Assembly (NCBI GenBank): GCA_035532215.1
Contig: DATKRK010000301.1
Location: forward strand, 1,181 to 65,180
Length of the DNA: 64,000 nucleotides
Reading direction: 5' to 3'
Origin: Pirellulales bacterium
Lineage (GTDB): Bacteria > Planctomycetota > Planctomycetia > Pirellulales > JAICIG01
The notes under the pieces: model-generated
Databases searched by the model: none
The model's input: the letters and a program-made list of their open reading frames with translations, nothing else
What the model was told of the DNA's origin: nothing
Made by a program: the position numbers and the translations under genes
Shown here: positions 4,546 to 38,801 of the stretch, in pieces
Position numbering within the stretch: the first letter of the stretch is position 1
How the letters are laid out: every line of letters starts with the position of its first letter

Positions 4546-4584
4546 TCCGGAGCCGGGTTTTACGGCGACAGAGGAGTTTTTTGC

Positions 4585-6722: not shown

Positions 6723-7250
6723 CTAAAGAGGGATTGCGCGAGGAGGCCGGAAGAAGCGGTCTTCCAGAGGAGAGGGAAGCGAGATACGGCTGCAGAGAGT
6801 GAGCCGCGAAACTAAATTGCTCTGCGCCGTGGTCGGCGCTTCGCTGGCAAGAGCTGCCAAGCCGGCGCTGGGGCCGACACTTGGCGGTTGAGATCCAGCG
6901 CCCCCAGCGTTGTTCGTCACGCTCGGCGGCAAGGAGGGTTGCTGGCGGTCGCGGATAAGAGGCATCGCCGGCTGCGGATCGACGGGCCGCTGCGGGGCAG
7001 CCATTTCGCCGCTCAGCACCGCATCACAGTTGACGATCACGCCCGCAGTGGCATCGCCAAGCGATACCAGCCAAACGACCAACGCGGCCCCGGCGACGCA
7101 CATGGCGCGAAAGCCAGAGGCTCGGCAGGATCGGTGCTCGCGGTGGCAGGTCATTGCGGCTTTGACTCCGGCCTCGCACTTGGAGGCCCTGGAACCCAAT
7201 AGTCCAACAGTGCCGATCATAACCAGCGAAGCGGCCGCGTCAAGCATCAT
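6723..7250 (-). CDS. hypothetical protein (possible membrane-anchored, Pro/Ser-rich)
   Basis: 175-aa ORF with acceptable G/C third-position bias and a hydrophobic segment MCVAGAALVVWLVSLG. No recognisable domain. Overlapping + strand ORFs look worse. Confidence 0.35.
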   Translation of the reverse strand: MMLDAAASLVMIGTVGLLGSRASKCEAGVKAAMTCHREHRSCRASGFRAMCVAGAALVVWLVSLGDATAGVIVNCDAVLSGEMAAPQRPVDPQPAMPLIRDRQQPSLPPSVTNNAGGAGSQPPSVGPSAGLAALASEAPTTAQSNLVSRLTLCSRISLPSPLEDRFFRPPRAIPL

Positions 7251-7380
7251 TTCGAAAAAATGGAAAAAACCGCAGGGACGCCCAGTCGCGGCTTTTGACC
7301 GGGCCAGGCAGTGATGCCTGAGATCGAATGTCCATTATTTCCGGCGCCCGCGTGCGTCGCCCCGCAGCCTCCCGCACTAA

Positions 7381-7510
7381 CCCGGATTATTCATCAGCCC
7401 ACGCCAACCCGAAGCGCAAGCGAGGCGGAGCAACGCACTTACCTCGCTGGCGCTTCGGGTTTGTATGGAGCGCTTTGTCAAGTAATAGCTGGGCTGATGA
7501 ATAATCCGGG
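7381..7510. repeat. 130-bp nested-palindrome element
   Basis: Outer perfect 20-bp inverted repeat: cccggattattcatcagccc (7381-7400) with gggctgatgaataatccggg (7491-7510). Inner 20-bp inverted repeat: aacccgaagcgcaagcgagg (7406-7425) with cctcgctggcgcttcgggtt (7442-7461), 1 mismatch. Confidence 0.75.
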
Positions 7511-7581
7511 CTAACGCTGCGGCTCTTGAAGAACGCCTACGCCAAAGGATCGGGCGCGTGCCATAGGGCCTATTTTCAGAT

Positions 7582-7875
7582 GTGACTGCGAAGTCCAACT
7601 CGGCCTTCGATCTGCCCTTTCCAAGAGGGGATGTTGATTGGTTTCTCACGCGACAGCTCGCTGGAGTTTACCTGCCGCCGACGAAATACGCACAACGGCG
7701 TATCGACAGCGCCGGATTCGGTCGTATCATGGCCCGCAGTTCAATTGAGTTCCGGAAGAAATACGGGGCCGTGGCGCGCGGCGAAAGAAAAAACGGGAGC
7801 TTGACGGCACTGGGGCGCCAATTAGTATGGGACTCGTTGCATCGGCAAGCCCAACCGAGAGGGGTAAGCAGGTAA
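7582..7875 (+). CDS. hypothetical small protein (weak)
   Basis: 97-aa GTG-initiated ORF in an otherwise gene-free 665-bp stretch. Codon bias is moderate and no motif was recognised. Confidence 0.2.
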   Translation: MTAKSNSAFDLPFPRGDVDWFLTRQLAGVYLPPTKYAQRRIDSAGFGRIMARSSIEFRKKYGAVARGERKNGSLTALGRQLVWDSLHRQAQPRGVSR

Positions 7876-8067
7876 ATTCGAGCGATATAGAAACGAGCAT
7901 CCGGCCGTAGAGGGTGCATGCCGCAGAGGTGCGGCCGCCCAGGCTGGCAGGCAGACGAACAAGCATTCGCTGCTTGAGGTTAGATGCGTGCCGAGACGGC
8001 ACGATATGGGCGGCGCTCATTTGCGAGGCGTCGCTTGTGGCACTAAGCGCCGGGTGAACATTTCTCT

Positions 8068-8096
8068 GTCACCCATGGGGACGGAGTCCGCCCGAG
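8068..8096 (+). repeat. 29-nt motif copy 1 (gtcacccatggggacggagtccgcccgag), 80 nt upstream of the exosortase start
   Basis: Identical 29-mer also at 18910-18938. It contains CCATGG and the small palindrome GGAC-gga-GTCC. Confidence 0.8.
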
Positions 8097-8175
8097 TGAG
8101 GCAGCGTTTGGCAGACAGCGTGTTCTGGTTCCGTCCCTGTCGTGTTTTGCTCTCTTCCCGAGTGACGATTCGTCC

Positions 8176-9219
8176 ATGAAACGTGGAAATAGGCGCAAAA
8201 CGGCGTCGGTTCGGGATGTTGTCGCCCGAAGTTCGCGGTCTGCAGCGTGGGAAATCGCTCGACCTCAGGGCGATGTGGCAAGCGAATTGGTCGATGCCGC
8301 GGCGAACGCGGAGGCCTGGCGCGCAAAGATCGGAAACCCGGTCTTTTTAGCGGGTATCGCTATCGTCGCCGCCACGTTTGGTTGGTCCTACTGGCCAATC
8401 GCCTGCGAACTGGTTCGCATCTGGAATCACGAGCCCGACTACTCGCACGGGTATTTTGTCGTTCCGGCGGCGCTGTATTTTCTTTGGTTTCGCCGCGGCA
8501 GTCTGCCGGCGCCCAGCGATCGGCTGCAATGGGGCGGAATGGTTTTGCTGGTGTTGAGTGGGGCGATACGCTTTGCCGGCAGTCTTTGGTATATCGACGC
8601 ACTCCAAGCTTGGTCGATTCCGTTTTGGGTGGCCGGTACCTGCTGGCTCTTTGGCGGTTGGCGACTGCTATGGTGGAGCCTGCCCTCGGTTGGTTTTCTG
8701 GCGTTCATGATTCCGCTGCCCTTTCGGGCGGAACATTTGCTCAGTTTTCCGTTGCAACGCGTGGCCACGAAGCTCAGTTGCTGGCTGTTGCAGTCGCTCG
8801 GGCGTCCCGCTGTGGCCGAGGGCAATGTGATTTATTTGAACGACATCACCCTGGGCGTCGCCGAGGCGTGTAGCGGGCTGCGCATCTTCATGTCGATTGC
8901 CGCGTTGGCTTACATTTACATGGTGCTAGCCAAACGCGATTGGTGGATGAAGGCGATCCTGTGCGCCAGCGTGTTGCCTGTCGCCTTGTTGACCAATGCC
9001 GTGCGGATCGTCGCCACAGCGCTTCTGCACGAATGGGTTTCCGGCGAGGCTGCCCATAAGTTTTCTCACGATTTAGCGGGCTGGCTGATGGCGCCGCTGG
9101 CCGCCGGACTGTTGGGGCTAGTGAGTTGGTACCTCGGCCGGCTGTTGGTCGATGTGGAAATCGTTTCTCCAGGCGAACTGATGTTCGGAGTACATGGCGA
9201 CGGCAAAAGCAAACGATAA
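8176..9219 (+). CDS. xrtA: exosortase (XrtA/EpsH-like)
   Basis: N-terminal motif WNHEPDYSHGYFVVP, catalytic-Cys motif GVAEACSGLR and Arg motif LTNAVRIV in a polytopic membrane protein. The neighbourhood (EpsI, PEP-CTERM-locus-type glycosyltransferase, deacetylase, AsnB-type and FemAB-like genes) matches the XrtA-type system as I recall it. Confidence 0.9.
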   Translation: MKRGNRRKTASVRDVVARSSRSAAWEIARPQGDVASELVDAAANAEAWRAKIGNPVFLAGIAIVAATFGWSYWPIACELVRIWNHEPDYSHGYFVVPAALYFLWFRRGSLPAPSDRLQWGGMVLLVLSGAIRFAGSLWYIDALQAWSIPFWVAGTCWLFGGWRLLWWSLPSVGFLAFMIPLPFRAEHLLSFPLQRVATKLSCWLLQSLGRPAVAEGNVIYLNDITLGVAEACSGLRIFMSIAALAYIYMVLAKRDWWMKAILCASVLPVALLTNAVRIVATALLHEWVSGEAAHKFSHDLAGWLMAPLAAGLLGLVSWYLGRLLVDVEIVSPGELMFGVHGDGKSKR

Positions 9220-9349: not shown

Positions 9350-11650
9350 ATGCACGAACCCGGAAAACAGCCGTCGGCGGGCGTTTTGGCGCCTATCGCA
9401 GCACGAGGGCATTTGGCTTCGTGGTCCACGGCGCCCGCCGTACATTCGGTCGCGGCGTTCAGCCTCGGAGACGTTTGGCGCACGGCACGACGCTGGTGGT
9501 GGCAGTGTACTTTTGCAGGTCTAGTGCTGGCAACCGCGGCCTGTGCTGCCGTGTGGTTCCTTTTCGAACCGGTTTATGTGGCGTCGTCCTGGTTGCTCAT
9601 CAAGAGCCAGCAGCCGCATATCGTGTACGCGACAAGCGGCGATTCTCGCTTGTTCGCAGAAACGCAATTGCAAACGATCCGCAGCCCGGTTGTGCTATCC
9701 AGAGTGCTTGCCAGCCAGCCCGAGATCGCCAAGTCGCCGGAAGGCGAACGATTTAACTCGCACCTGACATGGCTTCAGCAAGGGCTCCGCGCCAACTACG
9801 TGGGCCAGTCGGAACTTTGCGAAATCAGCTTTCGGGCGAGTAATTCTTCGATGGCCGCCAAAGTCGCGAACGCCATCATCGAGTCCTATTTGACGCTGCA
9901 TCGGGATAAAACCGGAGAGCAGGCGAGTCGCATCGTCGAGCTGTTAAACGAGGAGAAACGCAGCCGGGAACAAGAGGTGGAATATCTGCGCAACCAAGTG
10001 CGCGATCTGGCGCGCAAGATTACCGGCCACGAGCCGGCGTTCGTCGGCGGCGATCGGGACTTAGTATTGCACGAGTCCCCCTTGAGTCAGTTCGAGCAGC
10101 AGCGCAATCAAGCCGAAGTGGAAAAAGCTTATCTAGAGGCGAAGCTAACCGCTTACCGCGAATCGGTTGAAGCCGACGATGACGAAATACCGGCCGCTGA
10201 TTTGGAGAAGGCCCTCGCTGCACACCCGGGCATTCAGCGATTGCAGTCGCAGATCGCTATGTTGAAGGCGCAGCACGCAGAATATAAGCGTGTCGCACGT
10301 GGGAAGAGCGCCGATCGTTTGCCGCAACTTGTCGAGCGTATCGAGGAAGCCGAAGGATATCTGACGCGCCATTCCGATGAATTGCGCCCCGATGTCGAGA
10401 AGGAATTGCGGAAGGCCCTCAAGGAAGGTGCGGTCCGGGCCATCGCCGGGCTGAAGATGAACATCCGGAACCAACAGGAACTGATGAATCTGTGGCAGTC
10501 GAAAGTCGACGAGCACCGCAAGGAGTTGGAAAAAACGGGCGACGAAACGTTGCAGTTGGAATTCGCGCGAGCCGACTTGCTGCGTTCGGAGGAAGTGTTG
10601 GATCGCATTTCCGATCGGATCATGGCTTTGCGAACCGAACGAAAGGCGCCGGAGCGAGCGGAAATACTTCAACTTGCCGCTCCTCCCGCCGCCCCGTTAG
10701 AGGCGTTGCCGTATAAGAAGCTTGGAATGGCCGCCTTGGGAGCGTTTTGCATTCCTTTCGGCTTGGCATTCCTCTGGGAACGATGGGTCCGGCGGATTTC
10801 CGACGCGGGGCAAGTATCTATGGAAGCGAATCTGCCAGTGCTGGCCGAAATCTCGGCTTTACCGACGCGAAGCAGCATGGCGAGTCGGCTTACCGCCAAC
10901 CGTTTTGCACGCGACAGAGCCACGTTCGAAGAAAGCATCGACGCTTTGCGCGTGAACTTGATGCTGGCGCCAGAATCCAAGGATCTGCGAACGCTCGTCG
11001 TGACGAGCGCGGTGAGTCGAGAAGGAAAAACAAGTTTGGCGGCTTCCTTGGCGGCCAGCTTGGCGAGGTCTTTGCGACAGCCAACCTTGTTGATCGATGC
11101 CGATATGCGGGCGCCCGACTTGCACGAGATGTTCGACGCCGCGTTGGAGCCCGGCTTGGCAGGCGTACTGGATGGCGCATGCAGCCTTGACGACGCCTTG
11201 ATTACTGACGTCAATCGAAACGTGCATTTCTTGCCGGCGGGACGTCTGACGGTCAGCCCGCATCTGCTGTTACACAGCAGTCGATGGACGTCTTTGCTAT
11301 CCCAGGCGAGCTCGCGCTATCGCTATGTGATCATCGACGCGCCCCCGGTGCTCGCCGCCAGCGAGTCGCTCATCCTGGCGAGCGCGGCGGAAGGCACTTT
11401 GGTGTGCGCCATGCGGGATATCAGCCGCGGTCCTCAGTTGCGTACGGCCTGCGAGCGATTGAGAAATGCGGGAGCGCGAATTCTAGGCACCATCATCAGC
11501 GGCGTTCCAACACAAACATGGGCCTATAAATACGGCGGCTACGGTTATGGCCGGGAGCTTTACGCCGAAGGTTCCGGCGCCGTTTCGGATGAGGCGTCCT
11601 ATTCAAAGGAAGGGCATCCTGAGCCCGGGGAAGCGCGCCAAGGTTTCTAA
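9350..11650 (+). CDS. fused polysaccharide chain-length determinant / BY-type tyrosine autokinase (GumC/Wzc-like)
   Basis: N-terminal TM plus a long coiled coil and a second TM (LGMAALGAFCIPFGLAFLW). C-terminal P-loop VVTSAVSREGKTS, Walker A' LLIDADMRAP, Walker B YVIIDAPPVLA, Tyr cluster WAYKYGGYGYGRELY. Confidence 0.9.
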   Translation: MHEPGKQPSAGVLAPIAARGHLASWSTAPAVHSVAAFSLGDVWRTARRWWWQCTFAGLVLATAACAAVWFLFEPVYVASSWLLIKSQQPHIVYATSGDSRLFAETQLQTIRSPVVLSRVLASQPEIAKSPEGERFNSHLTWLQQGLRANYVGQSELCEISFRASNSSMAAKVANAIIESYLTLHRDKTGEQASRIVELLNEEKRSREQEVEYLRNQVRDLARKITGHEPAFVGGDRDLVLHESPLSQFEQQRNQAEVEKAYLEAKLTAYRESVEADDDEIPAADLEKALAAHPGIQRLQSQIAMLKAQHAEYKRVARGKSADRLPQLVERIEEAEGYLTRHSDELRPDVEKELRKALKEGAVRAIAGLKMNIRNQQELMNLWQSKVDEHRKELEKTGDETLQLEFARADLLRSEEVLDRISDRIMALRTERKAPERAEILQLAAPPAAPLEALPYKKLGMAALGAFCIPFGLAFLWERWVRRISDAGQVSMEANLPVLAEISALPTRSSMASRLTANRFARDRATFEESIDALRVNLMLAPESKDLRTLVVTSAVSREGKTSLAASLAASLARSLRQPTLLIDADMRAPDLHEMFDAALEPGLAGVLDGACSLDDALITDVNRNVHFLPAGRLTVSPHLLLHSSRWTSLLSQASSRYRYVIIDAPPVLAASESLILASAAEGTLVCAMRDISRGPQLRTACERLRNAGARILGTIISGVPTQTWAYKYGGYGYGRELYAEGSGAVSDEASYSKEGHPEPGEARQGF

Positions 11651-11659
11651 CGAGGCGCA

Positions 11660-14600
11660 TTGATTCAGAGTTCGATGCAAACTGCGACCATCAACCGCGG
11701 CGTGGGCCAACCGGCTAAACAGGCTAGACTGCGCCGGCGGGTCTTGAACATTCGGCTATTGGTGCGAAGCGCCGCCGCGACGGCGGTTATGGCGATATTG
11801 GCTTATTTTTGGCATGGGTTCCAAATAGACCGCAATGCAACCGCGTTACTGGACCGTGCGGCCCAAATGGAACAGAGCGAGAATTGGCTCGGGGCAGCGC
11901 AAAGCATCCACCGCTTCTTGCGCTTGCGTCCTGACGATGTCGATGCCAAGATTCGCCTGGCTGAAGATTTCGATCAGGCTGCCGCGACGACGCGTGACAA
12001 AACACGGGCCGTGGAATTATATGCTACCGCGATCGGCCTGGCGCCGGAACGAGCGGATCTGCGGAATCGCCATCTGACGTTGCTCTTGGAATCGGGCGAT
12101 TACTCGGCGGCCCTGCGGTACGCCGACGAAATGCTGGAACGTGAGCCGGAAGGGGCTCCTGCATTGCGGGTCCGCGCGCTTGCCCAGCTTGATCAATTGC
12201 AGATTCGCGGCGACGTGGCCGCGAATGAGGTCGCCAAGTCGCTTGAGGCGGCTATCGAGCTAAATCCAAACGATATCCAACTCGGCGCCAACCTGGCCCG
12301 CCTTTACAGAGCGAGTCTTCAATCGGGCGACCAAGGGGATCAGGTCATGGATCGTCTTGTCGAGCGGGCGGGCGACCAGGCCGCAGCGTTGCTCGCAAGA
12401 TACGCCTACCGCAGGCAATTTGGGTTGCCCGGCGCCGACGACGACCTCGACCTGGCTCTGGCAAAAGATGTGGATGCAAAGGACCTGGACATTCGTTTGG
12501 CGGCTGCGATCCGAGCCCAAGAGGCAGAGGACTGGGGGCAGTCCCTGAAATACTATCAAGACGCGGTCAGAATCGACAAAAGAGACCGGCGAGGTTACTT
12601 GGGCTTGGGCTTGGCATATCGTGAGCAAGGCAAGATCAAAGAGGCGCTCGTCGCTTGGCGGTCAGGGCTGTCGAATATAGGCGGACCCGATTTAGTGATG
12701 CTGACTCAAATCGCCGCGGCCGAGATTGAACTGCGGCAATGGGAGGCGGCCCAAAAAAACCTGAAGAGCATCGAACGGTTGGTTGAAGGCATCTTCGGTC
12801 GGGAGCAATCGGCTTGGCTGGCAACGATCGATTCTCTGCAAGCGGAGATGCTCATCGCCCAAGACGAGTGCCGAGAGGCGATACCGCTTCTGAAGAAGGC
12901 GATTATGCTCCGACAAGCGGGCGCCGAAACGAAAGCGAGCATTGCCGCAGACGCGAAGTTCTATGCCGCGTTGGGCCAATGCCATGCCAGGCTGATGCAG
13001 TGGGATCAGGCCGCGACGAGCTATCAGAAGGCCGCGGACTTGCGACCTTCGGAAACAGTTTATCGAATTTCGGCTGCGGCAGCATGGGCTTCGGCCGGAC
13101 GCTTAGATGAAGCTTCGCGACAATATGAACAAGCTTTGTCCGGCGATCGCGGGACAGCGAGTGCGTGGGGCGCCTACGCCCAGGTCGCGTTTCGACAGCA
13201 ACTTACTGCGTTGGAGCCCAACTGGCCGGAATTCGAACGAATTCTGGCCCAGGCGCAAGCCAAGACCGCCGACTCCAACGCCGGGCCGGAGGAAATCTTG
13301 GCTCTGAAGTTGCTCGATGCCGAATTTCTGCTGCACCGACAAAAATTCGAAGAAGCGTTTGCGCTGCTTAAGACGGTAGAAACTGAATTCGCAGCTGCAC
13401 CGGAGTTAGCCGCGCGATTGATCTTCGATTACGAGCGTCTGGGCCGGCAAAACGACGCCGACCGCGCGCTTGGCGAATTTGAAAAGAGGCCCGAAAACAG
13501 CTTGCGGTCCGTTTACGTTTGGGCGGATCTTTTGACAAGCAGGAAGCAATTTGACAAGGCGGAACGCCGTCTGTCAGATGCGTTGGCCGCGAAACTAACC
13601 AATGAAGAGCGGTTTGGCCTCGTTTACCGGCTCGCCATCCTCGATCTTTCCCAGGGCAAGAGCGACGCGGCGCGGAAAAAGCTTGAAGAACTCGCCGGCG
13701 CCGCACCTAAAGATCGACGCGTGCCAGCCTTGCTTGCGGAAATGGCGCTTGCGCGAGGCGATTTGCCGAATGCGGAGAAGTGGGAGCAGCGACTTCGTGA
13801 TATTCTAGGGGAAGAGGATGCGCTGTGGCGATATTATCGCGCCCAGCGTCTGATATATCAGTTCGCGAAAACAGCTCCAGACGATCAAAAAGCAAGACAG
13901 CGGCTGATTGATGAAGCCACTAAGCTGCAGGCAGAGGCGGAGCGGCTTCGCCCTAACTGGGGAGCAGCCTATTTGCTCAAGGCGAAATTGGCGCTGTTGG
14001 GCAGGCAGCCTGATTCCGAAGCGGCGGTTCGCGCCTATATCCAATCGATCCGGCTTGGCGAAACGCGTTTGCAAGTGTATGAGTCTCTGATCTCCCTGCT
14101 TTATCAGCAAAATCGCATCGCGGAAGCGGCAACTTATTTGAATCGACTGCGTGACGCGACGGAACTGCCGGCAGAGTTGACCACGATGGCGATGGCCATT
14201 GATGTTCGACAAGGCAATCTAGCTCGCGCTCTCGAATCGGCGCGGCGTGAGGTGGAACAGCATCCAGACGACGCTACGCGTCGCTTATGGTTGGGGCAGT
14301 TGTTAGCGCTTGAGTCGCCGGCCGATGACGACGCGGAAAAAGGCAAGCAAAAAGAAGAAGCCGAAGCTCAGATTAAACGAGCCAAGGAGTTATCGCCTAA
14401 GGACTTGCGTACGTGGTCTGCGTTGTTGTCATTTTATGCTGGCACGAAGCAGGTCGACGCCGGCCGCAAATTGCTCGCTGAACTCGAACAAAGCGACACG
14501 GTCGCTGATAGCGAACAAGCCTTCGTTTTAGCCCAAGGTTATGCTCTTTTGGGCGACCGCGACCGAGCTAAGTCGCTGTATCTTGACGCCGTTAAGAGGA

Positions 14601-16048
14601 ACACGGATTCCGTATACGTCCAATTGCAAGCCGCTGGCTATTTCCTACAAACGGATCTTGACTTAGCAAAGCAATGCGTCAACCGAGTCCTGCAACTCGA
14701 ACCGAATCACGAAACGGCACGAAACCTTTCGGCATTGTTGCGGTTCAGCGAGGGTGGAACCGAGGAGGAGCTGGAGGAAGTTTACAAGTTACTCGATAGG
14801 AACCGTGACGACGACGCACTCAGCGTTTCGGGGCAACGCCTGAAAGCACTAATGCTTGTGCGGCGTGGCGGCGAGAACTCTCGCCGCCGTGCTCGTGAAG
14901 TCCTAGAAGCCTTAGTGGATGTCGAGGGGACGCCAACAGACATAGACCGTCTGCTATTGGCTCGGCTCTACGAGGCGCAAGGACAAACAGTTGCCGCAGC
15001 CGAGCAATTGAAGGCCTTGGTAAACCGGGATAAGCCCTCTGCCAGCCACTTGGTGGCGTATGTCGACTTTTTGCTGCGAACCGAACAGGCAACGGAGGCT
15101 GGCTACTCGCTTGACCAGCTTGCGAAGCTTGAACCCGAGGGTGCGAATTGGCGAACCTTAACGCTCCGGGCGCGATGGCTGAAGGCCCGTGGCGAAGCCC
15201 CCAAGATTCCCCCTTTGGTTCAACGATTTCTCAACCAAACGCTGGCAAATGCGAACGATCCCGCTCAGCAAGCTACGCTGTGGCTCAACGCCGGCAAGCT
15301 TTATTCTTCGCTAAGTCTGGAGCCGGAGGCTGAATCTTCTTATCGCGAGGCCGTGCAACTCGAGCCCAGAACGCTGCCGGCGCTCGCAATGTGGTTGGCG
15401 CAGCATGGGAAGTCTGCCGAGGCCATTCGTTCGTGCATTGCTTCGGCAAAATCGGATCTGACCTCTCAGACAGCCAGGACGCTCAGCAGTATTCTAGTTA
15501 TTGCACCCCTGCCCGCCGAATTGCGCACCGATGCGGAGGCCGTACTATCTGCCGCTCTCGAGCGGCATCCCGAGGACGCTCAACTGCTCTTCGACATCGC
15601 AACCTTGCGGCTGTTCAAAGGCGACAACGGCCAAGCGATCCGTCTACTGCGGCAAACGCTCCAATTCGACCCGAAAAACTTGCAGGCGATGAACAATCTG
15701 GCGATCTTGCTTGCCGGTCAACCGCAAGGCCATGCGGAAGCGATCGAGTACATTGATCGGGCAATCTCATTAGCAGGCATGCATCCTGAGTTGCTGGACT
15801 CGAAAGCGTGGATTCTGCTCTGCCACGGTGAAGCAGCGGCAGCCGAGACGTTGCTCCACGACGCCCTCTCCATTCCGCCTGGCGATGCTCGCCATCACTT
15901 CCATCTGGCACTGGCTTGCCAATTGCAAGGCAAGCTCGACGACGCCCGGAATTCGCTTCAAAAGGCGAGAGACGGCAAGTTGCCGGTCAACCTGCTAATG
16001 CCGGACGAGCTTTCGCGTTTACACTCGCTCGAGCAAGCGCTCCGCTGA
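11660..16048 (+). CDS. giant TPR-repeat protein (PrsT-like, PEP-CTERM-system associated)
   Basis: 1462-aa ORF with an N-terminal TM (AATAVMAILAYFW), then tens of TPR-like helical repeats (for example AIRLLRQTLQFDPKNLQAMNNLAILLA). The track start is TTG 11660; ATG 11675 is an alternative. Confidence 0.85.
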   Translation: MIQSSMQTATINRGVGQPAKQARLRRRVLNIRLLVRSAAATAVMAILAYFWHGFQIDRNATALLDRAAQMEQSENWLGAAQSIHRFLRLRPDDVDAKIRLAEDFDQAAATTRDKTRAVELYATAIGLAPERADLRNRHLTLLLESGDYSAALRYADEMLEREPEGAPALRVRALAQLDQLQIRGDVAANEVAKSLEAAIELNPNDIQLGANLARLYRASLQSGDQGDQVMDRLVERAGDQAAALLARYAYRRQFGLPGADDDLDLALAKDVDAKDLDIRLAAAIRAQEAEDWGQSLKYYQDAVRIDKRDRRGYLGLGLAYREQGKIKEALVAWRSGLSNIGGPDLVMLTQIAAAEIELRQWEAAQKNLKSIERLVEGIFGREQSAWLATIDSLQAEMLIAQDECREAIPLLKKAIMLRQAGAETKASIAADAKFYAALGQCHARLMQWDQAATSYQKAADLRPSETVYRISAAAAWASAGRLDEASRQYEQALSGDRGTASAWGAYAQVAFRQQLTALEPNWPEFERILAQAQAKTADSNAGPEEILALKLLDAEFLLHRQKFEEAFALLKTVETEFAAAPELAARLIFDYERLGRQNDADRALGEFEKRPENSLRSVYVWADLLTSRKQFDKAERRLSDALAAKLTNEERFGLVYRLAILDLSQGKSDAARKKLEELAGAAPKDRRVPALLAEMALARGDLPNAEKWEQRLRDILGEEDALWRYYRAQRLIYQFAKTAPDDQKARQRLIDEATKLQAEAERLRPNWGAAYLLKAKLALLGRQPDSEAAVRAYIQSIRLGETRLQVYESLISLLYQQNRIAEAATYLNRLRDATELPAELTTMAMAIDVRQGNLARALESARREVEQHPDDATRRLWLGQLLALESPADDDAEKGKQKEEAEAQIKRAKELSPKDLRTWSALLSFYAGTKQVDAGRKLLAELEQSDTVADSEQAFVLAQGYALLGDRDRAKSLYLDAVKRNTDSVYVQLQAAGYFLQTDLDLAKQCVNRVLQLEPNHETARNLSALLRFSEGGTEEELEEVYKLLDRNRDDDALSVSGQRLKALMLVRRGGENSRRRAREVLEALVDVEGTPTDIDRLLLARLYEAQGQTVAAAEQLKALVNRDKPSASHLVAYVDFLLRTEQATEAGYSLDQLAKLEPEGANWRTLTLRARWLKARGEAPKIPPLVQRFLNQTLANANDPAQQATLWLNAGKLYSSLSLEPEAESSYREAVQLEPRTLPALAMWLAQHGKSAEAIRSCIASAKSDLTSQTARTLSSILVIAPLPAELRTDAEAVLSAALERHPEDAQLLFDIATLRLFKGDNGQAIRLLRQTLQFDPKNLQAMNNLAILLAGQPQGHAEAIEYIDRAISLAGMHPELLDSKAWILLCHGEAAAAETLLHDALSIPPGDARHHFHLALACQLQGKLDDARNSLQKARDGKLPVNLLMPDELSRLHSLEQALR

Positions 16049-16073
16049 CTCCAAACTGGCGCCGCTATTTCAG

Positions 16074-16769
16074 ATGACAGAAACTGTTGCTAATCGCCGA
16101 ATGCGCATGAGTGTCGCAATGGCAGGCTTATTATCGGTTGTTGGATTAACCGTTGCGTCCGGCGGGGTCTCCGGTTGGTTGGATAATCGCTGGGGCCAGC
16201 CTGTCGACCTATTGGCGGCAGGAAAGAATCTGGAACGGGCGCCAAGCCAGGTCGGCGACTGGCTTCTGGAGAACTCAAAGCCATTGAGTGCCGAGGTTAC
16301 GGACGTTCTGCAATGTAGCGGAAGCACGCAGCGCGTTTACCGCAACCAGAAGACCGGCGATGTGGTTACTTTGGCGCTGATCGTCGGCCCTCCCGGCCCG
16401 ACCTCCGTGCATACCCCAGAAGTTTGTTATTCTAGTCGCGACTACAAGACCATTTCGGCGCCCCAGCGGTTTCGAGCCATTGACGCGGGCTCCCGTTTCT
16501 GGGGGATGACCCTGGAAGCGACCGATCTCGAAGGCGGAAGGTTGAGCGTGGCTTACGCCTGGAATGACGGACACGGGTGGGTCGCCCCCGATCAACCTCG
16601 GTTTCAATTCGGCGGCGCCAAGTTGCTCTACAAACTGCAATTAGCCGCCCCCATGGATCGCGGTAATCCAGCCGAAAAGAGTAACCCCTGCCAAACTTTT
16701 CTGCGTGAATTCTTACCAGCGCTGGACTCTGTTCTTTTCCAGCAGCAGTCGTCAGCAGAGAAAACATGA
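16074..16769 (+). CDS. epsI: EpsI-family exosortase-associated protein
   Basis: N-terminal TM, then the SVHTPEVCYSSRDY motif (the H-x-P-E-x-C-Y pattern of EpsI-family proteins). Its position in the locus also fits. Confidence 0.8.
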   Translation: MTETVANRRMRMSVAMAGLLSVVGLTVASGGVSGWLDNRWGQPVDLLAAGKNLERAPSQVGDWLLENSKPLSAEVTDVLQCSGSTQRVYRNQKTGDVVTLALIVGPPGPTSVHTPEVCYSSRDYKTISAPQRFRAIDAGSRFWGMTLEATDLEGGRLSVAYAWNDGHGWVAPDQPRFQFGGAKLLYKLQLAAPMDRGNPAEKSNPCQTFLREFLPALDSVLFQQQSSAEKT

Positions 16770-17779
16770 TTAAACGATTGCGACCTTCTCCTCTTAAAAC
16801 GACCATTCCGGGAGCTAACAACATGAGTTTTGCCATTCGCCAGGCCCGTCGGCGAGAGCGATTAGCTATCGAAGACGACGTCTGCGCCGACGCTTCCTCT
16901 CGGAGTGTTGCGGCCGCCTATTTCGAATGGAAAGACTATGGCGGGAGATGCCTGGCGATCGTGCTTTTCATTGCCGGGTTGCCCATCATGGCTGCTACAA
17001 TGTTGTTGGTGCGATTGACGTCTCGTGGCCCCGCGATCTACCGTCAAATCCGCGTTGGTCGGAACGGACGAACATTCAGGATGTACAAGATCCGCACGAT
17101 GCGAGTCGATGCCGAAGCCGCTACTGGTCCAGTGTGGACTCAGCTACACGACCCGCGTATCACTCGCGTCGGATGGTGGCTCCGTAAACTCCATCTCGAC
17201 GAGTTGCCCCAAATAGTCAATGTACTTCGAGGCGAAATGGCCCTCATCGGCCCTCGTCCGGAGCGTCCCGAGTTTACTCGTCGCTTGGCGTTGGAAATCC
17301 CTGGCTATCTCGATCGACTGGCCGTGCGTCCGGGCATCACTGGCCTCGCTCAAATTAACCTCCCGCCCGATACAGACACTGAAAGCGTGCAGCGCAAGCT
17401 TGTTTTGGATCTCCTCTACGTGTGCGAAGGGAGTCTTTCGCTCGACCTCAAGATTCTGGCTTGCACCTTCGCACGACTTTTCGGCATCAAAGGTCGCCGT
17501 ATCACGCGATTATTTCGGCTCGATTATACATTCCACCTGTCGCAGCCGATTTCATTGGCTTCCCCATCGGCGAAAGGAAACGCGAATCTCCCTTTCGATG
17601 CATACCGCGACAACGGGCAGGTGAACGGCACATTGCACGCGTCTGCTCGTGGAGAGGCGATCAAGGGCGAGAGAAACCGGGGCGACGACGGGTTTACAAG
17701 CGATGCCCAATGTCGGCTAGATTGCGCCGTCGAGGGGAGCGAAGCGCCGATGAATCCGCAACGACGACTCCCGCGTTGA
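16766..17779 (+). CDS. undecaprenyl-phosphate sugar phosphotransferase (bacterial sugar transferase, WbaP/EpsB-like priming enzyme)
   Basis: RLTSRGPAIYRQIRVGRNGRTFRMYKIRTM...DPRITRVGWWLRKLHLDELPQIVNVLRGEMALIGPRPERPEF. The ATGA overlap with the epsI stop supports 16766; ATG 16823 is an alternative. Confidence 0.9.
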   Translation: MIKRLRPSPLKTTIPGANNMSFAIRQARRRERLAIEDDVCADASSRSVAAAYFEWKDYGGRCLAIVLFIAGLPIMAATMLLVRLTSRGPAIYRQIRVGRNGRTFRMYKIRTMRVDAEAATGPVWTQLHDPRITRVGWWLRKLHLDELPQIVNVLRGEMALIGPRPERPEFTRRLALEIPGYLDRLAVRPGITGLAQINLPPDTDTESVQRKLVLDLLYVCEGSLSLDLKILACTFARLFGIKGRRITRLFRLDYTFHLSQPISLASPSAKGNANLPFDAYRDNGQVNGTLHASARGEAIKGERNRGDDGFTSDAQCRLDCAVEGSEAPMNPQRRLPR

Positions 17780-17841
17780 GGGTTGGAGATGCTTGACTCT
17801 TCGCCGTCTGAACGCCCCGCGTTGACAACGCATACGATAAT

Positions 17842-18762
17842 ATGGAAATCTTGAACGCATTAACCGTCGACGTCGAGGACTATTACCACGTCTCGGCCTT
17901 CGAGCGACACATCACCCGCGAACGTTGGCACGATTTCGACAGTCGCGTCGAGGCCAGCACGCGGCGATTGCTCGACATTCTGGCGGAAGCCGACACTCGC
18001 GCCACGTTTTTCGTCCTGGGCTGGGTCGCACGGCGCCATCCGGAACTGGTGCGGGAAATCCATGACGCAGGGCACGAGCTAGGCTCGCATAGCTTTTGGC
18101 ATAGGCTGGTGTTCGAACTTTCTCCCGAAGAATTCCGGAATGACCTGCGCGACTCTCGAGCGGTCCTGGAAGACGCCGCGGGACAGCCAATCACGGCTTA
18201 TCGGGCGCCTAGCTTTTCCATCACCCGTCGCTCGCAATGGGCGCTTGAGATTCTGGCCGAAGAGGGGTTCAATGTTGATTCCAGCATCTTTCCGATTCGG
18301 CACGATCGCTACGGCATCCCTGATGCGAATCCGCATTTGCACGAGATTTCGACGCCGGCCGGGCCTTTGCAGGAGTTTCCGCCTTCGGTCGTTCGTTTTG
18401 CACGCATGAACTTTCCTGTCTCCGGCGGCGGATACTTTCGGCTGTACCCGCTTTCTTGGACCGTCCGCGGCCTATCTCGCGTCAACGGCAAGGGGCGGCC
18501 GTTCATGTTTTATATTCACCCTTGGGAATTGGACCCCGATCAACCCCGGCTGGCCGCCGGCTCTCGGCTATCTCGGGCGCGGCATCGAGTGAACCTGGCG
18601 TCGACTGCGGAAAAGTTGAGGCGCCTGTTGGGACGATTTCGCTTTGGCCGCATGGACGAATCGATCGAAGCAACGCTCCGCGCAAACAACGGCGGCTCGG
18701 GCGGCGGCGAACGATGTTTACGAAAGGCAACGAAGCGTTGCGAAAGCGCCACGATCGAATGA
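17842..18762 (+). CDS. polysaccharide deacetylase (XrtA-system type, NodB fold)
   Basis: LTVDVEDYYHVSAFE..., ATFFVLGWVA, GHELGSHSFWH, RAPSFSI. Confidence 0.9.
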   Translation: MEILNALTVDVEDYYHVSAFERHITRERWHDFDSRVEASTRRLLDILAEADTRATFFVLGWVARRHPELVREIHDAGHELGSHSFWHRLVFELSPEEFRNDLRDSRAVLEDAAGQPITAYRAPSFSITRRSQWALEILAEEGFNVDSSIFPIRHDRYGIPDANPHLHEISTPAGPLQEFPPSVVRFARMNFPVSGGGYFRLYPLSWTVRGLSRVNGKGRPFMFYIHPWELDPDQPRLAAGSRLSRARHRVNLASTAEKLRRLLGRFRFGRMDESIEATLRANNGGSGGGERCLRKATKRCESATIE

Positions 18763-18909
18763 CAGGCATCGGACGACTGGAGCGGTCGGTGCGCTCGTAG
18801 CGACTACAAATGCGGCTCAATTGTTTTCTTCGCACCTCCGCCGCGCGGCGGCAAGTGCTTTGCATAACAGCGTCCGGTCGATGAGCAGATGGTTGGCTGG
18901 CGAGCTACA

Positions 18910-18938
18910 GTCACCCATGGGGACGGAGTCCGCCCGAG
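18910..18938 (+). repeat. 29-nt motif copy 2 (identical to 8068-8096)
   Basis: Exact match read in sequence. It lies in the gap between the deacetylase and the next glycosyltransferase, 29 nt before the hairpin element. Confidence 0.8.
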
Positions 18939-18967
18939 CTCTGTCCCCAGCCCATCAGTTCGCGGTC

Positions 18968-19078
18968 AGCATCGAGGATTAAATAACCTCCCAAATTCGG
19001 GCAAAGTCGCCGCAAATCCGCCCCACTATTGGGGTTCCGAGCGGGTGTGTGTAGGGAAGTTATTTAATCCTCGATGCT
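18968..19078. repeat. 111-bp inverted-repeat (MITE/REP-like) intercistronic element, copy 1
   Basis: 25-nt arms agcatcgaggattaaataacctccc (18968-18992) and gggaagttatttaatcctcgatgct (19054-19078), 24/25 complementary. The right arm is identical to that at 37637-37661. Confidence 0.8.
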
Positions 19079-19080
19079 CA

Positions 19081-20388
19081 GTGAAGTCGAGATTTAAGCA
19101 GATCGGCTTCCATCAGATTCCCGACGTTATTTCCTGTTCGACCTGCCTGACGCCGCCTCACTTGAATCTCTTGTACCTAGTTCATCGAATTCCCTACCCG
19201 CCAAACCGCGGTGATCGAATTCGTTCGTATCATTTGTTGAGGTTCCTCGCGGCGCGGTACGACGTGTATTTGGCTTGCCTGGCCGATGAGCCGGTACCGC
19301 CGGCACACGAGGCGGCGCTCCGGGAGTTTTGTCGGCGGCTCGCCATCGTTCCGTTGGGACGCAAAACTCGCTGGCTTAATGCGGCTGCAAAACGGATCCT
19401 GGGCCGATCAGCCACTGAAGGGCTTTTTGAGTCGCCAGCGTTACGAAGAATCGTAAGCGACTGGGCCGGTCAAACGCGATTCGACGTCGTCTTCGCATTC
19501 TGTTCAAGCATGGTCCCCTACCTCGAATTGCCGGCCCTGCGCGATGTCCCGGCGCTCATCGACTTTGTCGACGTCGACAGCCAAAAGTGGTTCGATTATG
19601 CCGAGACCGCGACCGGGTTGAAGCGCGCCCTCTTTGCCAGCGAGGGCCGCCGCGTGCGGCGACTCGAAATCGACGCGGCGCGCCGCGCTCGCGCTGTAGC
19701 AGTCGTTAGCGAAGCGGAGGCGGAACTTTGCCGCGAGCATTGCGCTCCGACTCCGGTTTATGGAATCGGCAACGGCGTCGACCTCGACTATTTCGGCGCC
19801 GTCTCGCCCCCGGAAGATTCGGCAGACCAGCCCCATTGCGTATTTGTCGGCGCCCTGGATTATCGGGCGAACGTGGACGGCATCACGTGGTTTTGCCGCG
19901 AGGTCTGGCCCGAAATGCGGCGGCGATATCCACAAGCTACGTTCACCGCGGTAGGCCGTAACCCGTCGGCAGTCGTATGCCGACTGGCCGATTTGCCGGG
20001 CGTACAGGTCGTTGCCGACGTGCCCGACGTGCGGCCTTACCTGGCACGTGCGTCGGCGGTCGTGGCGCCCTTGAGAGTCGCTCGCGGTATTCAAAACAAG
20101 GTGCTCGAAGCCCTGGCGGCGCGCCGCGCCGTTGTTGCTTCGAGCGGCGCTTTGGACGGGCTCGACGTAGAAGCGGGGCGTCATGCTTTGTGCGCTGATT
20201 TGCCCAGCGAATGGATTACGGCCTTGTCGCGGCTGTTCGACGACGCCGCCTTGCGAAACGAGTTCGGCGCTTCCGGCCGCGCCTTCGTCGAATTGCACCA
20301 TGGCTGGGCGCCCCGGCTGGCGCCGTTCGGCGATTTGCTTTCGAACTTAATCACCCAGCGGCGTGCCGTCGCAGCCAGTTGCCAATGA
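19081..20388 (+). CDS. glycosyltransferase, PEP-CTERM/EpsH1-system-associated type (GT4-like)
   Basis: LLYLVHRIPYPPNRGDRIRSYHLLRFLA is the characteristic N-terminus of this family. There is no ATG: candidate starts are GTG 19081 (3 nt after the repeat) or TTG 19162 (giving M-NLLYLVH). The track start 18889 reads through the repeats and is rejected. Confidence 0.85.
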   Translation: MKSRFKQIGFHQIPDVISCSTCLTPPHLNLLYLVHRIPYPPNRGDRIRSYHLLRFLAARYDVYLACLADEPVPPAHEAALREFCRRLAIVPLGRKTRWLNAAAKRILGRSATEGLFESPALRRIVSDWAGQTRFDVVFAFCSSMVPYLELPALRDVPALIDFVDVDSQKWFDYAETATGLKRALFASEGRRVRRLEIDAARRARAVAVVSEAEAELCREHCAPTPVYGIGNGVDLDYFGAVSPPEDSADQPHCVFVGALDYRANVDGITWFCREVWPEMRRRYPQATFTAVGRNPSAVVCRLADLPGVQVVADVPDVRPYLARASAVVAPLRVARGIQNKVLEALAARRAVVASSGALDGLDVEAGRHALCADLPSEWITALSRLFDDAALRNEFGASGRAFVELHHGWAPRLAPFGDLLSNLITQRRAVAASCQ

Positions 20389-36726: not shown

Positions 36727-37548
36727 ATGCCTTCTGACCTTGAACAGTTGCGATCGACCCAACTTCGAGAACGGATCGATTCTGAGCGCAGTTATCATGA
36801 CGATTACTACCGAGCCCTCCAAGAGCCTCTCGCCATCCCATTCGATCTGGCAAACAGCACACAACGGCGTCCGCATAACCTGACGTGGGCTTTTTACGAC
36901 GCCATCTTGGAGCACTTCGGCCGCCAACTTAATGGTAAGCGGATCCTAGAAATCGGCTGTGGAACCGGCTCCGTGACACTAAACCTATCAAGGAACGGCG
37001 CTTATGTCGACGCATTCGACGTTAGCGAGGAAGCGGTGGCTATTTGCATGCGGCGCGCTGCTTACAATAACGAGGAGAAGGCAAAGTTCCTCGTATCGGC
37101 CATGGAGGATTTAGATCAGCCTGAGAATTACTATGATGCAGTTGTGGGGCACATGGTGCTGCATCATCTCGATATTTCAGCGGCGATGGAAAAGGTCTAT
37201 CGGTACCTCAAACCGGGCGGCTTGGGCGTTTTCGCCGAATGGAAGGAGTATGCTGTTGTTGACCGTGTGCGACGCACAGCATTGCTACAATGGCTGTTCC
37301 GACCTGGCGGCGTGACGGGGTATGCGACCGAGTACGAGCGAAAACTTTCACGTCGCGACTTTCAGGTGATTCGCCGCCGGTTCCCTAATTTGACCGTCGA
37401 ATGCCGCTACTGTCTGCGAGGAAAAGTCGAATACTTCAGCCCCAGGATCGCGGCAAAGCTCGAACGATTCGACTGTCGGCTCTTGCAACTGCTTCCATGC
37501 CTCAATCCATTCACCGACGGCGCCGTGTTGTGTGTGACAAAAGAGTAA
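36727..37548 (+). CDS. class I SAM-dependent methyltransferase
   Basis: ILEIGCGTGSVTLNLSRNGAYVDAFDVSEEAV, YDAVVGHMVLHHL, LKPGGLGVF. Spot line counts give a locally lower GC of about 48-57%. Confidence 0.85.
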   Translation: MPSDLEQLRSTQLRERIDSERSYHDDYYRALQEPLAIPFDLANSTQRRPHNLTWAFYDAILEHFGRQLNGKRILEIGCGTGSVTLNLSRNGAYVDAFDVSEEAVAICMRRAAYNNEEKAKFLVSAMEDLDQPENYYDAVVGHMVLHHLDISAAMEKVYRYLKPGGLGVFAEWKEYAVVDRVRRTALLQWLFRPGGVTGYATEYERKLSRRDFQVIRRRFPNLTVECRYCLRGKVEYFSPRIAAKLERFDCRLLQLLPCLNPFTDGAVLCVTKE

Positions 37549-37661
37549 GCATCCAGGATTAAATAACCTCCCAAACTCAAATGTCGTTGGGGTCGTAAAC
37601 CAGCCTTGCGAAAGCGGTTGCAGCGGAAGCAGTATGGGGAAGTTATTTAATCCTCGATGCT
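37548..37661. repeat. 114-bp inverted-repeat (MITE/REP-like) intercistronic element, copy 2
   Basis: Arms agcatccaggattaaataacctccc (37548-37572) and gggaagttatttaatcctcgatgct (37637-37661). It starts on the last base of the upstream TAA and ends 12 nt before the next ATG. Its interior is unrelated to copy 1. Confidence 0.8.
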
Positions 37662-37673
37662 AAAGGCCCAATC

Positions 37674-38801
37674 ATGGCATTTAAGGGCAGCGGTACGAAA
37701 GCACTGATCGTTGAACGCATGGCACTACGAACCATCCTAGTTGGCTGCGGTGCGGTGGCCGGGACGCTTTACCGCAAGCCTTTGCAAGAACTGGAACGCC
37801 AGAGCGTGCTGCGCGTCGTCGCGCTCGTTGACAGTAAGCTGGATCACGCCGAGGCAATGCGCTCACGGTTCAGATCGGCCAGCGTCTGGAACGATTTAGC
37901 CCTAGCGTTGCAATCGCAGCAGCCGGACTTGACTCTGATTCTCAGCCCGCCGCATCTGCACTGCGACCAAGCGGTTCTGGCTCTGGAGCACCAAAGCCAT
38001 GTACTTTGTGAAAAGCCGATGGCGGCGTCGACCGCTCAATGCGCCGAAATGATTCGCGTCGCACGGGAAAGCAAGCGTGTTCTAGCTATCGGCATGATCC
38101 GCCGGTTTTTTCCCGCTTTCGCGCAACTCAAAACATTACTCGACACGGGCGAATTGGGAGAGATTCGCTCCTTTTGCTATCGTGAGGGCCGGGTGTTCGA
38201 CTGGGACGTCCGGACGCCCGCGCTCTTCGCCCGACAGCCTTCCGGCGGCGCCGGGCTGTTGTTCGATATCGGCTCGCACGCCCTGGACTACTTGCACTGG
38301 TTGTTTGGCGATTTGAGCGTGGTCTCGTATGCGGACGATGGCTACGACGGCGTGGAGGCCAATGCCTTACTCGAGCTGGCCGCGCCAAGCTGCCGTGGCA
38401 GGATGCAATTATCCTGGGATTCGCCCTTGCTGTGTGAGCTGCGCGTGACCGGCACAAAGGGCGAGGCCATCCTGCGTGTCGATCACCTCGACAAGCTCGC
38501 AGTCAAATGGAAAGGAGATTTCCAGGAAGTCGCGGTTCATCACTGCTATCCCGCAGATGTGCGCAATCCTAGTCTCAAGGCGATTGCACCAAGACTTTAC
38601 GCCGAAAGCATCTACTGTCAGCTAATCCAGCTCGTCCGCGCCATCGAATTGGCAGAGGCGCCCGCCGTGGACGGAGTCCAGGGGCAAGCCTGCGTCAGCC
38701 TCATCGAGGCGGCACGTCGTCGTGCCCGGCCGCTTGACGTTCCCTGGCTCGATCCCGAGCAGCAAGCGATGCATCAAGCTCTTCACTGGACGAACGCATG
38801 A
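37674..38801 (+). CDS. Gfo/Idh/MocA-family NAD(P)-dependent oxidoreductase
   Basis: ILVGCGAVAG...VVALVD (Rossmann) and the family motif VLCEKPMA. ATG 37719 is an alternative start. Confidence 0.85.
   Translation: MAFKGSGTKALIVERMALRTILVGCGAVAGTLYRKPLQELERQSVLRVVALVDSKLDHAEAMRSRFRSASVWNDLALALQSQQPDLTLILSPPHLHCDQAVLALEHQSHVLCEKPMAASTAQCAEMIRVARESKRVLAIGMIRRFFPAFAQLKTLLDTGELGEIRSFCYREGRVFDWDVRTPALFARQPSGGAGLLFDIGSHALDYLHWLFGDLSVVSYADDGYDGVEANALLELAAPSCRGRMQLSWDSPLLCELRVTGTKGEAILRVDHLDKLAVKWKGDFQEVAVHHCYPADVRNPSLKAIAPRLYAESIYCQLIQLVRAIELAEAPAVDGVQGQACVSLIEAARRRARPLDVPWLDPEQQAMHQALHWTNA

Follow-up and report, generated by a model that had tools for sequence, protein, structure and literature searches.

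A conserved sequence element precedes exosortase and polysaccharide genes in planctomycetes and is a candidate cis-regulatory site

A 29-nt sequence, GTCACCCATGGGGACGGAGTCCGCCCGAG, occurs twice in a 64-kb stretch of DNA from a Pirellulales bacterium (contig DATKRK010000301.1; termed here the window), within an exosortase/exopolysaccharide (EPS) locus. On the interpretation that we favour, this 29-mer forms the conserved core of an element that regulates, in cis, a planctomycete exosortase/exopolysaccharide regulon. The motif marks this regulon in at least Pirellulales and Planctomycetaceae, and through it the entire slime-synthesis locus is probably expressed in a coordinated manner. No earlier description of the motif was found in the literature, whether searched by topic or by sequence string, and it is apparently an undescribed, phylum-specific variant of the conserved leader elements of polysaccharide operons. 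To our knowledge, gene regulation in Planctomycetota is almost unexplored, and we know of no report on the control of their exosortase/PEP-CTERM polysaccharide loci.

Both copies are exact and lie on the + strand, at positions 8068–8096 (copy 1) and 18910–18938 (copy 2), and the sequence occurs nowhere else in the window. No third match was found in the window at up to 3 mismatches, dinucleotide shuffles gave no match (0 of 100), and neither a profile hidden Markov model (HMM) nor a covariance model (R1) recovered a third copy over the 64 kb. Specifically, R1 scores copy 1 at 46 bits and copy 2 at 42.9 bits, compared with 15.3 bits for the next-best match in the window, which is located within a gene on the opposite strand. 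The exact, mismatch, shuffle, and model searches bear out the first-pass annotation of this DNA, which had reported exactly two copies, and the placement given there for both copies is also correct. Copy 1 is located in the leader of the exosortase operon and ends 79 nt before the exosortase ATG (8176); it is kept in the orthologous leaders of four related loci, L002–L005 (L numbers designate loci). Copy 2 occupies part of the 399 nt that separate the deacetylase stop codon (18762) from the start of a PEP-CTERM-type (TIGR03087) glycosyltransferase gene, and has a counterpart in L026.

An R1 scan of ~190 kb of related loci, with a member threshold of at least 28 bits, defines a family of 20 clear instances. 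These score 28–46 bits, versus noise of at most 18.5 bits, and are distributed over ~15 contigs of Pirellulales and Planctomycetaceae metagenome-assembled genomes (MAGs). All 20 are intergenic, and they point in the same direction as the following gene wherever that gene was identified (the gene following L029c was not resolved). The distance from motif to start codon ranges from ~44 to 450 nt. The motif precedes an XrtA-like exosortase gene in the window, L002–L005, L013, L025, L026, L029, L030, and L037. In L002–L005, where the exosortase is 73–86% identical, TG(T/G)CACCCATnnGGACGGAGT is kept upstream of the exosortase gene and the nearby leader sequence has diverged; L005 carries two tandem copies. 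In L026, both window positions are kept although the exosortase is only 57% identical, with the second copy (anchor 20933) again between the deacetylase and glycosyltransferase genes. The presence of copies at both positions in L026 indicates that both positions are ancient. A copy at 20232 of L029 also lies 3' of a deacetylase gene, and its following gene was not resolved.

The motif is also located upstream of a Wzc-like tyrosine kinase gene in L012, of a GDP-mannose dehydratase gene (gmd) in L006 and L010, and of a GDP-fucose synthase gene (fcl) that adjoins exosortase U (XrtU) in L010 and L019. Two instances precede small secreted or sorting-signal proteins; one L029 copy lies upstream of a small secreted protein, and in L025 the motif precedes a VPEID-CTERM protein that is followed by exosortase E (a VPEID-CTERM/XrtE pair). 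The suggestion that the 29-mer is an operator or RNA motif coordinating the EPS locus is thus supported by copies at orthologous positions of related genomes (L002–L005 and L026) and by neighbours that are exclusively exosortase or polysaccharide genes.

Members beyond the closest relatives were collected by pattern scans of public genomes and metagenomes, by profile HMM, and from loci around exosortases of 49–62% identity. An exact 22-mer has no match in the genome collection. The pattern TGNCACCCATNNGGACGGAGT has 13 matches there, and the 4 TGT-type matches in planctomycete MAGs are true members; matches in Bordetella, Halosegnis, Bacteroidetes, Actinomycetota, and others are due to chance, and L011, L015, and L023 score 13–18.5 bits. 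The metagenome scan yielded one new locus (L019/L021), its remaining matches being coincidences in coding sequence, and the viral scan yielded coincidences only. In the Thermoguttaceae exosortase locus L038, no convincing copy was found. The spread of the family is underestimated because the scan patterns demanded CACCCAT; a degenerate search form is CCCAYNNGGACGRAGTYYG plus the upstream hairpin. One low-scoring candidate, at 4550–4582 of L011 (a Planctomycetaceae MAG), reads TGCCACCCATGCGGACGGAGT-gaa-ACTCCGTCC, with the core paired to a perfect 9-nt complement. It sits between a sugar transferase gene and an open reading frame (ORF) whose N-terminus resembles UDP-GlcNAc 2-epimerase by eye, and at just 13 bits it is either a divergent relative or a coincidence.

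The element has a constant order of parts: a variable hairpin (P1), the box (U)CACCC-AY-NN, the near-invariant 12-mer GGACGGAGTCYG, and a GCGC tail. In the core alignment, the invariant or near-invariant positions are G..CC.A...GGACG.AGT...C, corresponding to (U)G(U)CACCC-A(U/C)-NN-GGAC-G(G/A)A-GUC(C/U)-G-C. P1 can form in nearly every instance. Its 3' arm is the conserved box, while its 5' arm and loop differ case by case. In copy 1 (P1 at 8052–8074, + strand), GGGUGA (8052–8057) pairs with UCACCC (8069–8074) across an 11-nt loop (−7.3 kcal/mol, p = 0.03). In copy 2 (P1 at 18894–18913, + strand), UGGCUG (18894–18899) pairs with CAGUCA (18908–18913) across an 8-nt loop (−7.5 kcal/mol, p = 0.08 taken alone). 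Other arm pairs are GGGAC/GUCCC (L026b), UUGCGC/GCGCAA (L030), and GGUGAC/GUCACC (L019). An anchored-helix test against shuffled upstream sequence gives a combined Fisher p of 8.5e-6 for 18 independent instances. The flanks of the two window copies show no similarity on alignment, and their P1 5' arms are unrelated in sequence. The first-pass statement that the flanks are unrelated is therefore right for sequence and wrong for structure: each copy has its own hairpin arm directly upstream, so that unrelated flanks nevertheless encode equivalent hairpins.

The mini-hairpin P2 is near-invariant. On the + strand it spans 8077–8092 in copy 1 (GG-GGAC, GGA loop, GUCC-(G)-CC; 12-nt core GGACGGAGTCCG at 8079–8090) and 18919–18934 in copy 2, with the same sequence (12-nt core at 18921–18932). 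Among 22 aligned instances, the outer pair (35–45) is never broken (GC in 12, GU in 10); the second pair (36–44) is GC in 17, AU, CG, and GU in one each, and unpaired in 2; and the two other pairs are invariant. Two-sided compensatory changes are found in L030 (GAAC/GUUU) and L037 (GCAC/GUGC), and the covariation score is matched by 1 of 500 shuffles. The GGAC-gga-GTCC mini-hairpin noted in the first pass is thus a family-wide feature. The GGA triloop is present in 19 of the 22 instances. The three L029 copies, at 9686, 9154 (− strand), and 20232, all have a GAA loop in place of GGA, two of them with CCGACGCGGACGAAGTCCGC in common; the GAA loop is a genome-specific core variant of L029. The CCATGG palindrome, also noted in the first pass, is incidental, as relatives read CCATCG, CCATGC, CCACGG, and CCAAAG.

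Other pairings of the core are also possible. A pyrimidine-rich stretch before the box can form an alternative helix, YUYUGUC-CC/GGGACGGAG, which is paired in 72% of cells with C or U opposite G. RNAalifold applied to five close leaders predicts this alternative helix, not P1 and P2, and does so without covariation. Each window copy also has a tentative downstream anti-core partner on the + strand. For copy 1 it is UGGUUCCGUCCCUG at 8126–8139 (duplex −20.1 kcal/mol, p = 0.02), which forms a long hairpin in the fold of 8050–8145; for copy 2 it is AGCUCUGUCCCCA at 18937–18949 (duplex −22.8 kcal/mol, p = 0.01), where the fold contains a hairpin of 12 bp (z = −2.9). Such partners are strong in both window copies, marginal family-wide, and missing from many instances.

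A consensus scan identified a σ70-like promoter, TTGACG-16 nt-TAGTAT, at 7801–7828 (+ strand), ~250 nt 5' of copy 1, which is probably the promoter of the exosortase operon. This block is kept in L003, L004, and L005 while its surroundings diverge, and comparable promoter-like sites lie 180–250 nt 5' of the motif in L026 and L029. Because a conserved promoter-like site lies upstream, the motif is probably transcribed. No promoter-like site was found between the motif and the exosortase gene, nor 5' of copy 2 or of its intercistronic counterparts in L026 and L029. As judged from these predicted sites, the leader would be ~340 nt long, with copy 1 at ~230 nt, and copy 2 would fall inside a read-through spacer. 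Contrary to the first-pass view, copy 2 therefore probably opens no transcription unit of its own. A second σ70-like site, TCGACA-16-TATCAT (10 of 12 consensus bases), is present at 7703–7730, ~100 nt 5' of TTGACG-16-TAGTAT, and similar TCGACA sites occur in L005 and L026.

We considered and rejected a leader peptide as the explanation of the motif. In copy 1, the ATG within the motif opens a 34-codon ORF that ends with ATGA at the exosortase start, and this ATG is not kept in relatives (CAC, CAT-C, AAA); at copy 2 there is an unrelated 21-codon ORF. A different small ORF, at 8096–8179 and in L002–L005, starts 9 nt after the motif GGAG and encodes (M/V)RxRLAxS(V/I/L)F(G/W/E)F... Its Leu codons vary synonymously (UUG/CUA/CUG), and in the window and L003 it ends with ATGA overlapping the exosortase start. 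This ORF (MRxRLAxSxFGF) was likewise rejected as the explanation: it is confined to the closest relatives, its C-terminal part is read in two frames that distinguish subgroups, and the more distant exosortase leaders do not contain it.

Of the 29 positions, ~13 are fixed or almost fixed family-wide, and the remaining 16 differ between genomes. At the variable columns, the window pair has an identity of 0.89, compared with 0.57 for within-genome pairs and 0.48 for between-genome pairs (p ~0.05 for within-genome versus between-genome pairs). The window pair is thus the extreme case, within-genome pairs in general being barely more alike than between-genome pairs. The identity of the window copies at genome-variable positions points to family constraint plus recent copying or homogenisation (gene conversion) in this genome.

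How the element works can be proposed by analogy. With a likelihood that we place somewhat below even, it may be a pause-and-recruit (processive antitermination) site resembling ops/JUMPStart. The element would be transcribed within the operon leader (copy 1) and the intercistronic spacer (copy 2); RNA polymerase would pause at the 12-mer, aided by the upstream nascent-RNA hairpin; and one trans-acting factor, such as a specialised elongation factor of the NusG type, would recognise the mini-hairpin in single-stranded form. This factor would give processive transcription through the ~45-kb gene cluster, and at copy 2, ahead of the glycosyltransferase genes, the complex would be loaded afresh or checked once more. 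The sense orientation, the variable distance to the start codon, the leader and intergenic sites in long polysaccharide operons, and a core shared across families argue for one trans-acting reader that acts during or after transcription. The single GAA loop in all three L029 copies is as expected if a single factor reads the loop. Aligned in the pause register with ops, GGCGGTAGCGTG, the 12-mer is identical at 7 of 12 bases. The hairpin part of ops is GCGGTAGC (PMC11685472), and the consensus pause calls for G, a pyrimidine, and G at positions −10, −1, and +1, respectively (PMC10268239). At the matching positions the 12-mer has G in 20 of 22 instances, a pyrimidine in 22 of 22 (C in 12, T in 10), and G in 18 of 22.

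Several results weigh against a pause-and-recruit site. Neither the window nor ~40 related loci encode a NusG paralogue or any further candidate for the factor, and tblastn searches with E. coli RfaH, NusG, and CsrA gave no match in any of the related loci. P1 ends 16–19 nt before the putative pause position, where the usual distance is 11–13 nt, and the pause model leaves the conserved (U)CACCC-AY box unexplained. L030 and L037 have no G at −10. The C/U alternation opposite G, which is seen also in the alternative upstream helix, would fit RNA pairing equally well, and the 7-of-12 identity to ops is a weak statistical lead.

Several of the same data bear on a second interpretation, which we regard as possible and rather doubtful: the element may act as a leader RNA, its P1-linker-P2 structure serving as the target of a small RNA or of a regulator that binds RNA; a riboswitch responding to a small ligand is less likely. 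Tentatively, binding could switch the core between alternative pairings and so affect termination, stability, or translation of the polysaccharide genes. Such an RNA is compatible with the location of the motif in a predicted transcribed leader, with the hairpin support and covariation, with the constant C or U opposite G35 (GC in 12, GU in 10), with the extent of pairing in the alternative helix, and with the strong anti-core partners downstream of both window copies (p = 0.01–0.02), although many instances have no such partners. The single-sequence fold z-scores are modest (−1.5 and −2.9), no terminator-like site was found downstream, a recognisable expression platform is lacking, and Rfam 15 families remain unmatched even at E up to 10. 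The motif also precedes single genes inside operons (fcl and gmd in L010), as translational operators do. However, with start codons anywhere from ~44 to 450 nt away and without a further GGA site at them, direct occlusion of the ribosome site is unlikely. The GGA triloop in a short hairpin resembles CsrA/RsmE sites, while the GAA loop of L029 speaks against CsrA and against a fixed ligand pocket, and the element is small and conserved mainly in primary sequence, unlike most riboswitches.

We consider it unlikely that the motif is instead a DNA signal, that is, an alternative sigma promoter of the extracytoplasmic function (ECF) type or an activator or repressor site at the starts of co-regulated polysaccharide units. 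The TGTCAC-16 nt-YGCGC geometry resembles ECF promoters such as TGTAAC-N17-CGAC, but the most conserved bases, GGACGGAGT, fall in the would-be free spacer, and the putative −35 and −10 parts are less conserved. GGAC-NNN-GTCC is palindromic, and palindromic half-sites may covary too; however, the inverted-repeat arm lies at a variable distance (loops of 4–13 nt), a misfit for a dimeric operator. The strictly sense orientation and distances of ~44–450 nt to start codons are compatible with a promoter followed by 5' untranslated regions, whereas a conserved σ70-like promoter already lies ~250 nt upstream. An ECF-like sigma gene is divergent beside the L030 exosortase operon (weak Sigma70_r2 match, E = 2e-4) and has a homologue in L038; neither gene has a motif copy upstream, so the autoregulation usual for such genes is not seen. 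These genes lie at 8377–8991 (− strand) of L030 and 7075–7749 (− strand) of L038, both divergent and 5' of the exosortase operon, and their proteins are 37% identical; a FecR-like protein is encoded near the L038 gene, and the window has no counterpart of the sigma gene. A σ54 promoter (TGGCAC-N5-TTGC, as in the PrsR-type control of PEP-CTERM loci) was rejected: in the motif, TGTCAC-CCAYN-GGGAC, GT takes the place of GG at −24 in 21 of 22 instances, and −12 lacks GC. Far less probable than any of these is a functionless element that came to lie in two gaps by chance, whether a small repeat of the REP or MITE kind or the product of recent local duplication or gene conversion. The window copies are identical even at genome-variable positions, and the same intergenic regions hold real repeats (18965–19078, matching 37545–37661, and 7378–7513) at which a public assembly breaks. 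Against this stand the orthologous positions kept in relatives whose exosortases are 49–86% identical, and the confinement to exosortase and polysaccharide contexts in at least three planctomycete families. The generic repeat family raised by the first-pass annotation is rejected, and so is a dispersed REP/MITE repeat, which would be expected in many copies in diverse contexts and orientations, often with terminal inverted repeats: the 64 kb hold two copies, neither of them in coding sequence, and the 20 copies in ~190 kb of related loci are all intergenic and in sense orientation beside exosortase/EPS genes.

The first gene after copy 1, at 8176–9219 (+ strand), encodes an XrtA/EpsH-like exosortase (Pfam PF09721, 1.6e-61; NCBIfam exosortase models). 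The stretch after it, 9350–18762, encodes a tyrosine autokinase/chain-length protein, a 1462-aa tetratricopeptide repeat (TPR) protein, EpsI, a sugar transferase, and the deacetylase. The first gene after copy 2, at 19162–20388 (+ strand), encodes the TIGR03087 PEP-CTERM/XrtA-system glycosyltransferase (NCBIfam, 4.8e-127), and polysaccharide genes continue on the + strand from there to ~52.4 kb. No regulator genes are encoded among the window annotations. From TTG 19162 the glycosyltransferase aligns with TIGR03087 positions 1–395 of 397. Because the family alignment is full length from this codon, the ORF from ATG 18889, which spans the motif, is an over-extension. ORF finders and the public gene call stretch the glycosyltransferase 5' across the motif in this way at 18889–19161 and at L026 20920. 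Small proteins that match no family are encoded divergently from the exosortase operon at 6723–7250 of the window, 8595–9026 of L029, and 7977–8354 of L037 (all − strand). They are weakly similar to one another and end in a PP..F..RPP-type tail, which may be a sorting signal, and the L029 gene has a motif copy 5' of it. Farther upstream, a 36-nt exact direct repeat (743–778 and 815–850, 72-nt spacing) lies inside an FtsX/MacB-like permease gene (382–1578), indicating a duplicated peptide segment.

Two kinds of inverted-repeat element are present in the window. A 114-nt element with 25–28-nt inverted arms (AGCATCGAGGATTAAATAACCTCCC ... GGGAAGTTATTTAATCCTCGATGCT) and a variable centre is present at 18965–19078 and 37545–37661, each copy just 5' of a gene start (the glycosyltransferase at 19162 and a GFO/IDH/MocA oxidoreductase at 37674). 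The first copy sits between motif copy 2 and the glycosyltransferase gene; the fold of the element has −55 kcal/mol (z = −7.1), and the element was not found in the related loci. The second kind is a 136-nt nested perfect hairpin at 7378–7513, with outer arms of 24 nt and inner arms of 27 nt (−79.8 kcal/mol, z = −9.5), in the 925-nt gap 5' of the exosortase leader. The two ends of the public Logan contig L001 fall within this hairpin (start) and within the 18965 element (end), suggesting that the genome holds further copies of both.

If the element is a planctomycete counterpart of the ops/RfaH or opsX/UpxY systems, it would recruit a factor that licenses transcription of exosortase-dependent exopolysaccharide operons and ties in the nucleotide-sugar genes gmd and fcl. 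The motif offers a compact handle of ~45 nt, and a bait, for the trans-acting factor. It also defines a computable regulon, comprising exosortases of three types, a tyrosine kinase, glycosyltransferases, and GDP-fucose synthesis, and it corrects gene calls, namely the over-extended glycosyltransferase ORF in the window and L026. If the ops-like mechanism in particular holds, a further phylum would be seen to control processivity along its long polysaccharide operons by a dedicated system, and to do so with an unrelated sequence, which bears on how often such a solution evolved.

The element shares features with several known systems and is identical to none of them. Similar to c-di-GMP and other riboswitches, it is a conserved polysaccharide-leader element with hairpins and possible alternative pairings; unlike them, it is very small, is conserved in primary sequence, has a genome-specific loop change, and has no recognisable expression platform. 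No Rfam 15 family (riboswitches, EAR, c-di-GMP-I/II, mini-ykkC, and others) matches the window at gathering score, and nothing relevant appears at E up to 10 around either copy or at E up to 5 in eight related loci. Similar to CsrA/RsmA sites, it has GGA in the loop of a short hairpin 5' of exopolysaccharide genes (ACGGAGU, compared with ACGGAUG in hcnA). However, ~25 nt are conserved around the hairpin, a second site at the start codon is not seen, L029 has GAA throughout, and no csrA gene was found in the related loci. EAR (eps-associated RNA) of Bacillales is likewise a conserved non-coding element between genes of an exopolysaccharide operon, and it too has a link to the read-through of long operons. 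As a structured RNA it is large and complex, whereas the planctomycete element is smaller and matches no Rfam family.

The closest parallels are with ops/JUMPStart and opsX. As with ops/JUMPStart and RfaH in Enterobacteria, the element is short, conserved, and in sense orientation, lies at a variable distance from the start codon in long polysaccharide leaders, and is shared by several operons per genome; the core has the same G/−10, pyrimidine/−1, and G/+1, with the mini-hairpin in the same register and the base identities described above. It differs in sequence (GGACGGAGTCYG, not GGCGGTAGnnTG), in its longer conserved part (~25 nt plus the variable hairpin), in phylum, and in its additional location between genes, and no RfaH-like gene was found in the related loci. 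opsX of Bacteroides capsule operons, ~40 bp in length, has two parts: a pause hairpin in the nascent RNA, which varies, and after it a small hairpin in the non-template DNA, by which a NusG paralogue is recruited (PMC11685472). The planctomycete element is likewise a multipartite leader element of about this length, with a variable hairpin directly before a small conserved one. Bacteroides operons begin with their own upxY and upxZ and have their own ops variant, whereas one planctomycete motif type is common to all units of a genome; no upxY- or upxZ-like first genes were found, nor any NGN or KOW match in the window annotation. On these comparisons, it is conceivable, at a probability we hold to be low, that the variable pause hairpin and GGACGGAGTCYG together form a phylum-specific counterpart of ops/RfaH or opsX/UpxY, or else that the element represents a new class of ligand- or protein-responsive leader RNA.

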